This document shows positions 35,701 to 59,010 of a DNA stretch of 64,000 nucleotides, piece by piece. The position numbers and the translations under genes are program-made. Every line of letters starts with the position of its first letter. Within the stretch, counting starts at the first letter, position 1. Source of the DNA: Chiloscyllium plagiosum. Lineage: Eukaryota. The notes under the pieces are model-generated. The model did no database searches and was not told the origin of the DNA. It saw only the letters and a program-made list of their open reading frames with translations. The stretch is taken from positions 41,805,964 to 41,869,963 of the forward strand of contig NC_057721.1 in the NCBI RefSeq assembly GCF_004010195.1. Direction: 5' to 3'.

Positions 35701-38700
35701 ATAACACAGAAGTAGGTAGAAACTTAAGTTGTGAAGTGGACATAAAATGCCCACAAAAGATGTGTAGATAGTTATGTCCGTGTGGTAAATAGAAAATAAT
35801 GTGGGAAAATGTGAACTTGTCCATTTTGATAGGAAGATTTAAAAGAAAGCATTCACTAAATAGTGAGAAATTGTCACTGCATACTAGAACATTTAAATCT
35901 CTATGCATCTCAAAGGGCAAAACACTAGTATGGAGATGTACAGCAAGTAATTAGAAAAGTGAATTTGTATCGTTTATTGTGAAGGTCATTGAATACAAAA
36001 GTAGGAAGAATATCCTTCAATCTTACAATGCACTGGTGAGGTTACATCAGGAGTACTGTGTGCAGTATTTTTTCCTTTTAAGTTGGGAGAAGGTCTATTA
36101 AACTAATAACAAATAGGCAGCTCCACTGATGGGGATAGGTTAGACAAACCGGTCTTCCATTGGTTGGAGTTTAACAGTATGGGGGGATTTGATTGAAACA
36201 TAAGATACTGAAAGATCTTGACAGGGTAGATACAGACAGCAGGTTTTGGGAGAGTCTATAACTAGGGGTTACAGTTTAAAAATAAGACGCACTCCTTTAA
36301 AACAGTGAATTTTTCTTTAGTCTCTGGAACGCCTTTCCTGAAAAGGGTACGAAAGCAGAATCTATGAATGTTTTTCGGACAGAAGCAGATAAATGCTTGG
36401 TAAGCAGATGAGTGGAAGGTTATCAAAGCAGATGGGAATGTAGATTTGAGGTTATAAATAGATCCACTATCGGCAGCCAAATGACCACCTCCTGCCCCTT
36501 GTTCGTATGTTCATATCATTGCTAATCACCATCTAACACTCAAATAGATGATCTTATCGCTGGTCTGTGTGATTGCCAGGCAGCAAAATGTCTTGTGTTC
36601 GGATATTTTTCTTGTAAAGGAAGGTTAGAGTTTGCCCTAGCTTATCCCTAGTCATCGAGTCCTAGAGATGTACAGCATGTAAACCGACCCTTCGGTACAA
36701 CCTGTCCATGCAACCAAATATCCCAACCCAATCTAGTCCCACCTGCCAGCACCTGGCCCATATCCCTCTAAAGCCTTCCTATTCATGTACCCATCCAAAT
36801 GCCTCTTAAATGTTGCAATTGTACCAGCCTCCACCACATCCTCTGGCAGCTCATTCCATACACGTACCACCCTCTGCGTGAAAAGGTTGCCGCTTAGGTC
36901 TCTTTTATATCTTTCCTCCCTCACCCTAAACCTACACCCTCTAGTTCTTGACTCCCTGACCCCAGGGAAAAGACTTTGCCTATTTACCCTATCCATGCCC
37001 GTCATAATTTTGTAAACTTCTATAAGGTCACCCCCTCAGCCTCCGACGCTCCAGGGAAAACAGCCCCAGCCTGTTCAGCCTCTCCCTATAGCTCAAATCC
37101 TCCAACCCTGGCAACATCCTTGTAAATCTTTTCTGAACCCTTTCAAGTTTCACAACATCTTTCCGATAGGAAGGAGACCAGAATTGCACGCAGTATTCCA
37201 ACAGTGGCCTAACCAATGCCCTGTACCACCGCGACATGACCTCCCAACTCCTGTACTCAATACTCTGACCAATAAAGGAAAGCATACCAAATACCTTTTT
37301 CACTATCCTGCAACTCCACTTTCAAGGAGCTATGAACTTGCACTCCAAGGTCTCTGTTCAGGAACACTCCCTCGGACCTTACCGTTAAGTGTATAAGTCC
37401 TGCTAAGATTTGCTTTCCCAAAATGCAGCACCTCGCATTTATCTGAATTAAACTCCATCTGCCATTTCTCAGCCCATTGGCCCATCTGGTCCAGATCCTG
37501 TTGTAATCTGAGGTAACCCTCTTCACTGTTCAGTACACCTCCAATTTTGGTGTCATCTGCAAACTTATAAGAGTCTCATGCTCTACCGACTGAGCTAGCC
37601 GGGCCTCGCACTTGCTAAAGATAAATTAAATTACTTAGTGTGGAAACAGGCCCTTCAGCCCAACAAGAACACACCAACCCTCCGATGAGCAACCCACCCA
37701 GACCCATTCCCTTACATTTACCCCTTCACCTAACACTACGGGCAGTTTAGCATGGCCAATTCACCTATCCTGCACATTTTTGGACTGTGGGAGGAAACAG
37801 GAACACCCGGAGGAAACCCAGACACTGGGAGAATGTGCAAACTCCACACAGTTGCCTGAAGTGGGAATTGAACCCGGGGTCTCTGGCGCTGTGAAGCAGC
37901 AGTGTTAACCACTGTGCCACCAAGGACTGTTTTCTTTATTAGGGAATGACACGTGACTGTAAAGATTAGGATAATTGAGAAAGACAGTAAAGTTTAATTT
38001 AATTAAAATGCTACTATAGCAGTATTGCAATTTGGATTTGAATAAACAATCATTGAAATATGATATTCTTTTAAACTGTTTGCTCTAGGCAGCCCTGGAT
38101 ACGAGCAAGATAGAAGCGAGCAAGCCCAAAGCAGATGCTGTTGGAGAAGATGGAATTCTTCAGACGAGAACTTATGATCTATATATTACTTATGACAAGT
38201 ATTATCAGACACCCAGGCTTTGGTTGTTTGGTTATGATGAGGTAAACAGGTAGTGTCTTATCAATCATTGTTATGTAAAGGGATTAGTATTTTACAATTG
38301 TTTGTGAGCTTTATTTTCTTGAACATTATATAGTGTTTAATGGTTATATTCGAGAATGTGGTGCTGGAAAAGCACAGCAGGCCAGGCAGCATCCGAGGAG
38401 CAGGAGAAGCCTTCATCAGGGGCTTATGCCCGAAACGTCAATTCTCCTGCTCCTCGGATGCTGCCGAGCCTGCTGTGCTTTTCCAGCACCACACTCTCGA
38501 CTCTGATCTGCAGTCCACACTTTCTCCTAGTATAATGGTTATACCAAACTCTATTATTTTAATTATGATACAGATTTGTCATACGTGATTAATGTATGTA
38601 AAACCATAATCAACCGTTTGGCATGTTCCTATTTTCAGCAACGACACCCACTGACTGTAGAAGAGATGTATGAGGACATTAGCCAGGACCATGTCAAGAA

Positions 38701-58510: not shown

Positions 58511-59010
58511 NNNNNNNNNNNNNNNNNNNNNNNNNNNNNNNNNNNNNNNNNNNNNNNNNNNNNNNNNNNNNNNNNNNNNNNNNNNNNNNNNNNNNNNNNN
58601 NNNNNNNNNNNNNNNNNNNNNNNNNNNNNNNNNNNNNNNNNNNNNNNNNNNNNNNNNNNNNNNNNNNNNNNNNNNNNNNNNNNNNNNNNNNNNNNNNNNN
58701 NNNNNNNNNNNNNNNNNNNNNNNNNNNNNNNNNNNNNNNNNNNNNNNNNNNNNNNNNNNNNNNNNNNNNNNNNNNNNNNNNNNNNNNNNNNNNNNNNNNN
58801 NNNNNNNNNNNNNNNNNNNNNNNNNNNNNNNNNNNNNNNNNNNNNNNNNNNNNNNNNNNNNNNNNNNNNNNNNNNNNNNNNNNNNNNNNNNNNNNNNNNN
58901 NNNNNNNNNNNNNNNNNNNNNNNNNNNNNNNNNNNNNNNNNNNNNNNNNNNNNNNNNNNNNNNNNNNNNNNNNNNNNNNNNNNNNNNNNNNNNNNNNNNN
59001 NNNNNNNNNN
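58511..59010. other. Assembly gap (500 N)
   Basis: Run of N. Confidence 1.

Follow-up and report, generated by a model that had tools for sequence, protein, structure and literature searches.

A single-copy fusion of a tRNA-Lys 5′ half with a 5′-truncated CR1 LINE in Chiloscyllium plagiosum, one of a recurrent, sense-oriented class of tRNA fusions

A stretch of 64,000 nucleotides from Chiloscyllium plagiosum (hereafter the window) was analysed together with the rest of its own genome. On the minus strand, window positions 37604-37568 comprise nt 1-37 of tRNA-Lys-CTT, with the A box and the anticodon and without the B box. This piece is an exact match to intact genes of the same genome (L002, L003, L006 and L008), confirming its original prediction as nt 1-37 of tRNA-Lys-CTT. 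An exact search of the 3.56-Gb genome placed the 37-mer at 11 sites (chance expectation 4e-13): nine whole tRNA-Lys genes called by ARAGORN, one copy stopping at nt 54 and the window locus. The half itself was detected by neither Rfam nor ARAGORN, and the folding of the tRNA piece, the CR1 tail and the SINE tail was no better than that of shuffles. The 3′ half had been described as missing beyond the CR1, and indeed none was found anywhere in the 64-kb window with up to 6 edits allowed.

The tRNA piece adjoins, without a spacer, a 5′-truncated CR1-type LINE that runs from 37567 to 36650 on the minus strand, from the FADD motif of the reverse transcriptase (RT) to the 3′ tail, with frameshifts. 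The spacerless joint to a truncated CR1 opening with KFADDT, noted in the first description, was thereby confirmed, the CR1 measuring 918 bp. It was identified by an RVT_1 match (E 5e-5, below the Pfam cut-off) and by its family copies, displaying 88-91% identity to those spanning its full length and 4.6% divergence from the 14-copy majority. The RT of L042, a copy of this family, has 61-66% identity to named shark and ray proteins and 39-53% identity to bird and turtle proteins, values that would fit a canonical CR1 in cartilaginous fish. Named homologs among the best 120 matches are mostly RT proteins of birds, turtles, sharks and rays, and none of these 120 bears the name CR1. Bird LINEs are mostly CR1, and the RVT_1 domain and the named homologs together are those of a vertebrate-type CR1. 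No endonuclease was found by Pfam in the short frames of two other tRNA-fused CR1 copies, L059 and L062. A protein filed under Proteus mirabilis (P0014, on a 1.7-kb contig) is 91% identical to the RT of the window family and likely represents host DNA inside a bacterial assembly.

The tRNA-CR1 junction occurs at one place in the genome at up to 3 mismatches, which rules out an amplified family. Among 30 CR1 copies spanning the junction, position -1 is G in 26 and A in four (most of them came from a search weighted towards A at this position); the window carries A37 there. Three of the A-type copies were checked, and they share at most one of the window's 11 derived sites, ruling out a source subfamily that offered 3-4 nt of microhomology. 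Given the predominance of G at -1 and the unrelatedness of the A-type copies by derived sites, the joint reads as blunt; the last tRNA base is then A37, or U36 when a single later change is admitted. To place the end at C34, one CR1 base would have to be lost, which is seen in 1/30 copies. The tRNA and the CR1 have TTA in common at the junction, one base out of register. A homology-guided switch was considered, tRNA nt 22-31 and the CR1 immediately before the junction agreeing at 9/10 positions, and was rejected, as 6.4% of 30-nt CR1 windows score as high.

Fourteen bases separate the tRNA piece from the tail of an upstream tRNA-derived SINE with a CR1-like tail (37619..37912, minus strand), presumably an HE1/V-SINE. 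It lies 7.9% from its majority, against 3.4% for the SINE family median and 4.6% for the CR1, and is therefore probably an older insertion, separate from the tRNA-CR1 unit. A single three-part insertion of SINE, tRNA and CR1 was not favoured, the SINE being more diverged and no target-site duplication (TSD) framing all three. Within the intervening bases, the eight that precede tRNA +1 (37605..37612, minus strand) match the leader of L052 and L083 at 7/8, with one CpG-type change; L052 and L083 are truncated tRNA-Lys pseudogenes in a tRNA cluster, not intact genes. This match length was reached by 0/200 draws from other tRNA families, a rough null with redundant arrays. The last six bases are also identical to the CR1 family at 19-24 nt before the junction, so that a 6-nt CR1 remnant, or plain target DNA, is the rival reading. 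A precursor-tRNA leader is nevertheless the probable one and is favoured over the CR1 match, because 24/60 fusions in the genome, the window included, have leader matches beyond all 200 null draws. The statement that the unit begins at the mature 5′ end is consequently doubtful: the upstream bases look like a leader, although six of them match CR1. Comparison of this flank with tRNA-Lys leaders, as had been proposed, gave its match to the two pseudogenes and not to an intact gene.

The 3′ flank (36300..36649) had no other copy among the DNA compared. No convincing TSD was found around either the tRNA-CR1 unit or the SINE-containing unit, the best local duplication being 6 nt with a mismatch. 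TSDs of the CR1 clade peak at 3-5 bp only (PMC4245944). A contig of one other animal, organism B, tracks the flank over 36301-36674 with 16 substitutions and one gap and ends 25 nt inside the CR1 tail, an overlap below the 31-nt rule of the search; it hints that the insertion may be shared with this relative of ~4% divergence. In organism C the 3′ flank was not covered at 92% likeness, which has no bearing on the empty site, and run shares, which reach 0.8, are uninformative owing to the SINE and tRNA words in the query. That an assembly artefact joined a tRNA gene to the CR1 is highly improbable, since the nearest assembly gap is 21 kb from the junction, no other Lys copy has this 5′ flank, and a large polar class of fusions has the structure in common. 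A 500-base N run occupies 58511-59010 of the window.

This class was delineated by searching the genome with eight tRNA head patterns, which gave 435 matches (Lys 48, Cys 46, Val 78, Tyr 26, Glu 5, Asn 126, Thr 71 and Ala 35). From these, 275 distinct tRNA copies, genes included, were analysed, with chromosome-scale contigs favoured. A SINE (49) or a CR1 (10) lies within 40 nt downstream of 59 of the 275 copies, and every one of these 59 partners is in sense orientation (0 antisense, p 3e-18); upstream SINE or CR1 neighbours are 10:5 sense to antisense. Among the SINE partners, 47/49 begin within the first 10 SINE nt (~0.5 expected from background density). Since L103 (two copies) and L180 share one site, the 59 fusions represent at most 57 independent events. 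At 6/6 testable loci an interrupted host repeat resumes after the whole tRNA-SINE unit (the rejoining is exact at L210, 528|529, overlaps by 5 nt at L063 and leaves a gap of 6-33 nt at each of L330, L067, L180 and L306), showing that the tRNA and the SINE were inserted as one unit at those loci. For the window locus, where no clear TSD is present, a single insertion event is argued by analogy; we infer that the tRNA and the CR1 very probably arrived there together.

Eight tight tRNA-CR1 fusions (gap of at most 20 nt) were found, namely the window, L059, L061, L062, L169, L170, L316 and L349. They have eight different CR1 breakpoints, and 6/8 carry a whole tRNA. In L184 and L357 the CR1 follows after 36-37 nt, making these ambiguous as fusions. 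Three of the chimeras were themselves the source of libraries CR1b, c and d; the CR1 start was confirmed by independent copies for L061 and L062, and for L059 by one 72% copy only. The genome search for tRNA-CR1 junctions called for in the original prediction thus points to a recurrent mechanism and not to an amplified family, with the qualification that the window is the only case of a tRNA half ending at nt 30-38 beside a CR1, while the wider tRNA-CR1 class recurs. A small RNA directly 5′ of a 5′-truncated LINE, and independent junctions with no amplified master, are two marks of a small-RNA/LINE chimeric retrocopy that the fusion displays; the third, joint insertion of both parts, was demonstrated for tRNA-SINE units at other loci. 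Chimeric tRNA-CR1 retrocopies in sharks were not found in the literature, subscription journals and Repbase reports aside.

The frequency of whole tRNAs in these fusions raises a later DNA deletion as an explanation for the window half: a whole pre-tRNA-CR1 chimera, comparable to L059, L061 and L062, would have lost the tRNA 3′ half, its trailer and some CR1. Internal deletions do occur in fusions L172 and L181, and the common TTA also speaks for such a loss. This account is unlikely, however, as it requires a second event, its microhomology is out of register, and A stands at -1 in just 4/30 CR1 copies, the three checked having at most 1/11 derived sites in common with the window.

The donors of the fusions in this genome look like precursors. 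CCA is present in 0/40 exact full-length tRNA fusions, trailers are retained, the intron is kept in 7/7 SINE-fused Tyr copies, and leader matches are frequent. Kept introns, leaders and trailers together suggest that reverse transcriptase meets tRNA precursors in the nucleus. The tRNA is whole or nearly whole in 51/59 fusions; the remaining eight comprise two with internal deletions, three that end at nt 48, at nt 54 and just past the Tyr intron, and three that end at nt 30-38. These last are the window, L073 (nt 36) and L174 (nt 30), the window having a CR1 as its partner and the other two a SINE. With donors of this kind, a mature half cut by a nuclease and bearing a cyclic phosphate, as originally envisaged, was not shown.

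Ends at nt 30-38 were also found in 8 of 16 hand-picked clean 3′-truncated copies (p 0.027 against a uniform spread). The cluster pseudogenes L052, L054, L083 and L134, array variants and the internal deletions L158, L172, L181, L329 and L363 were left out of the 16, and the head patterns impose a floor near nt 28-31 on truncated copies; because of the hand-picked exclusions and this floor, the enrichment is weak. L052, L054 and L083, which are cut at nt 28-31 in a tRNA-Lys cluster and have gene-like upstream flanks, were probably truncated at the DNA level. At L163, a 5′ piece of tRNA-Val (30-31 nt), preceded by a 7-nt leader, is repeated in tandem to at least four copies beside a gap.

Two free halves were observed between 10-11-nt duplications: L070, a 5′ half of tRNA-Lys-TTT to nt 36, and L168, one of tRNA-Cys to about nt 35-37. 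Both resemble the tailless tRNA retropseudogenes, copies whose ends lie in tRNA loops (Noll et al. 2015, PMC5322556). Elements of that kind are flanked by TSDs with no partner and are primed at the target site, whereas the window half is joined to a LINE. That free halves insert alone bears on a history of two insertions, either a CR1 entering an earlier tRNA retrocopy, with deletion of the 3′ half of the latter, or a free half being inserted close to a CR1 5′ end in place of 18 nt. The lack of a TSD and the six CR1-like bases before the tRNA would both suit such a history. We consider it quite unlikely, given that antisense cases number 0/59, the free halves carry duplications and not deletions, the window contains no tRNA 3′ half, and a landing 6 nt from the CR1 end is itself improbable.

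The reading that we somewhat favour is that the tRNA-Lys 5′ half and the CR1 were joined in a single-copy fusion by template jumping of the CR1 reverse transcriptase. Target-primed reverse transcription of the CR1 RNA would have ended early; the enzyme would then have left the CR1 RNA for the anticodon loop of a tRNA, probably an unprocessed one, and copied that tRNA through to its putative 8-nt leader. The end at nt 36-37 could correspond to the 3′ end of a tRNA fragment or to an internal landing in the open loop. Capture of a tRNA piece during CR1 retrotransposition, as first proposed, is supported, with a mechanism that recurs and a junction that is single-copy.

RNA ligation preceding retrotransposition is a doubtful alternative. 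By this route a tRNA cut at 36/37, leaving a 2′,3′-cyclic phosphate, would be joined by RtcB to a broken CR1 RNA with a 5′-OH, and the chimera would retrotranspose as do U6/L1 chimeras. The blunt junction fits ligation as well as it fits jumping, which counts against the latter at the window, and the sense orientation and the truncated copies with ends at nt 30-38 agree with it too. The canonical tRNA intron cut site is 37/38, close to the end of the window half, and a broken CR1 5′ end could carry a 5′-OH. Full-length Pol III transcripts, on the other hand, should begin with a triphosphate. RtcB needs a cyclic phosphate and a 5′-OH, and ligation has been proposed for 3′-truncated small RNAs (PMC6789731). 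Intact SINE 5′ ends and U-rich trailers are thus poor RtcB substrates, so that ligation leaves most members of the class unexplained and the class favours jumping, although with halves in only 3/59 fusions this evidence bears mainly on whole precursors. No fusion of the Tyr 5′ exon, a natural RtcB substrate end, to a SINE or CR1 occurs among the 24 Tyr copies; in L227, which lacks such a partner, 5 intron bases remain. Human angiogenin cuts tRNA-LysCUU between C34 and U35 (PMC11840711), and the window end at 36-37 differs from this position, although shark sites may differ from human ones. A donor cut at a known nuclease site, and hence an angiogenin-type 5′ half, accordingly did not emerge at the window. 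A count of 3′ ends over the whole genome would let sequence discriminate between ligation and jumping.

An improbable extension is that, in the nucleus of the shark germ line, intron-less pre-tRNAs are cut at 36-37, on or beside the canonical intron site, and that CR1 or SINE RNA joined to such halves has become fixed in the genome. If true, shark genomes would preserve nuclear pre-tRNA cleavage as a record that can be dated and that differs from angiogenin halves.

The suggested likeness of the locus to a proto-SINE was not borne out. There is one copy, no exact match to the B-box consensus occurs in the window element, the nearest site with 1 mismatch being at nt 152, and four T4 runs (37423, 37060, 36971 and 36884) precede the CR1 tail. 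A SINE2 or proto-SINE would have both A and B boxes, several copies with one junction and Pol III transcription predicted to reach the LINE tail. Lacking a B box and containing internal terminators, the fusion is predicted to be dead, and the window locus is likely dead DNA. TguSINE1 and PittSINE, in which a tRNA lies 5′ of a CR1 3′ end and template switching onto the tRNA was proposed (Suh et al. 2017, PMC5729268), are by contrast amplified and have A and B boxes and a short tail.

The fusion resembles known small-RNA chimeras and differs from them in its CR1 partner, its sense polarity and its probable precursor donor. Human tRNA/LINE-1 chimeric insertions at 21 loci, proposed to arise from anticodon-loop halves (Law and Burns 2025, bioRxiv 10.1101/2025.02.02.635956), likewise place a tRNA half, in many cases nt 1-37, at the head of a truncated LINE. 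They involve L1, are mostly antisense (twin priming) and have TSDs of 9-19 bp, whereas the shark fusions surveyed involve CR1 as well as SINEs, are 59/59 sense and show no evident TSD at the window; their donors are mostly whole precursors, versus typically halves in human. U6 chimeras with L1, L2, RTE and SINEs, which arise through template switching or ligation by RtcB (Doucet et al. 2015, PMC4476161; Moldovan et al. 2019, PMC6789731), are similar in that a sense-oriented Pol III RNA forms the 5′ end of the LINE or SINE, the head at the window being a tRNA piece instead (for general background, see PMC4494074, PMC3747384, PMC7245038 and PMC13343379).

For CR1, the U6 survey has a single U6-CR1 case, from turkey, on which Doucet et al. 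reached no conclusion (PMC4476161); against this stand the eight tight tRNA-CR1 fusions described here and one U6-tRNA-CR1 fusion. The latter, at L061 1456-1638 (minus strand), consists of a full U6 snRNA (Rfam, 109.5 bits), a tRNA-Lys with its trailer and a 5′-truncated CR1, and is a clear case of U6 associated with CR1, the point that PMC4476161 had left open. The tRNA-CR1 fusions extend small-RNA chimeras to CR1, where that survey was inconclusive. The model of SINE birth from a tRNA head and a LINE tail needs frequent sense fusions of tRNAs to LINE 3′ ends, and eight independent tRNA-CR1 fusions in a partial survey of eight tRNA families bear on it. The class is in this respect more significant than the window locus itself.

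Several further composite structures were observed. L072 combines a tRNA-Lys, a 5S-like sequence (judged by eye, Rfam making no call at the gathering score) and a SINE; L141 is a stack of tRNA-Val, tRNA-Asn and a SINE; L229 stacks a pre-tRNA-Tyr and a tRNA-Gly; and L349 has two tRNA-Ala fragments before its CR1. In L062 a CR1 3′ tail directly precedes the tRNA-Lys that is fused to another CR1, possibly a CR1-tRNA-CR1 product of successive jumps. Near the window locus there are three Rfam miRNA matches, all below cut-offs, whose source is an inverted repeat of an abundant short element at 38350-38500. We take this element to have a hammerhead-like core and to deserve a Penelope-like label. At L086 a tRNA-Lys is fused to an element of the same type within a 14-bp duplication.
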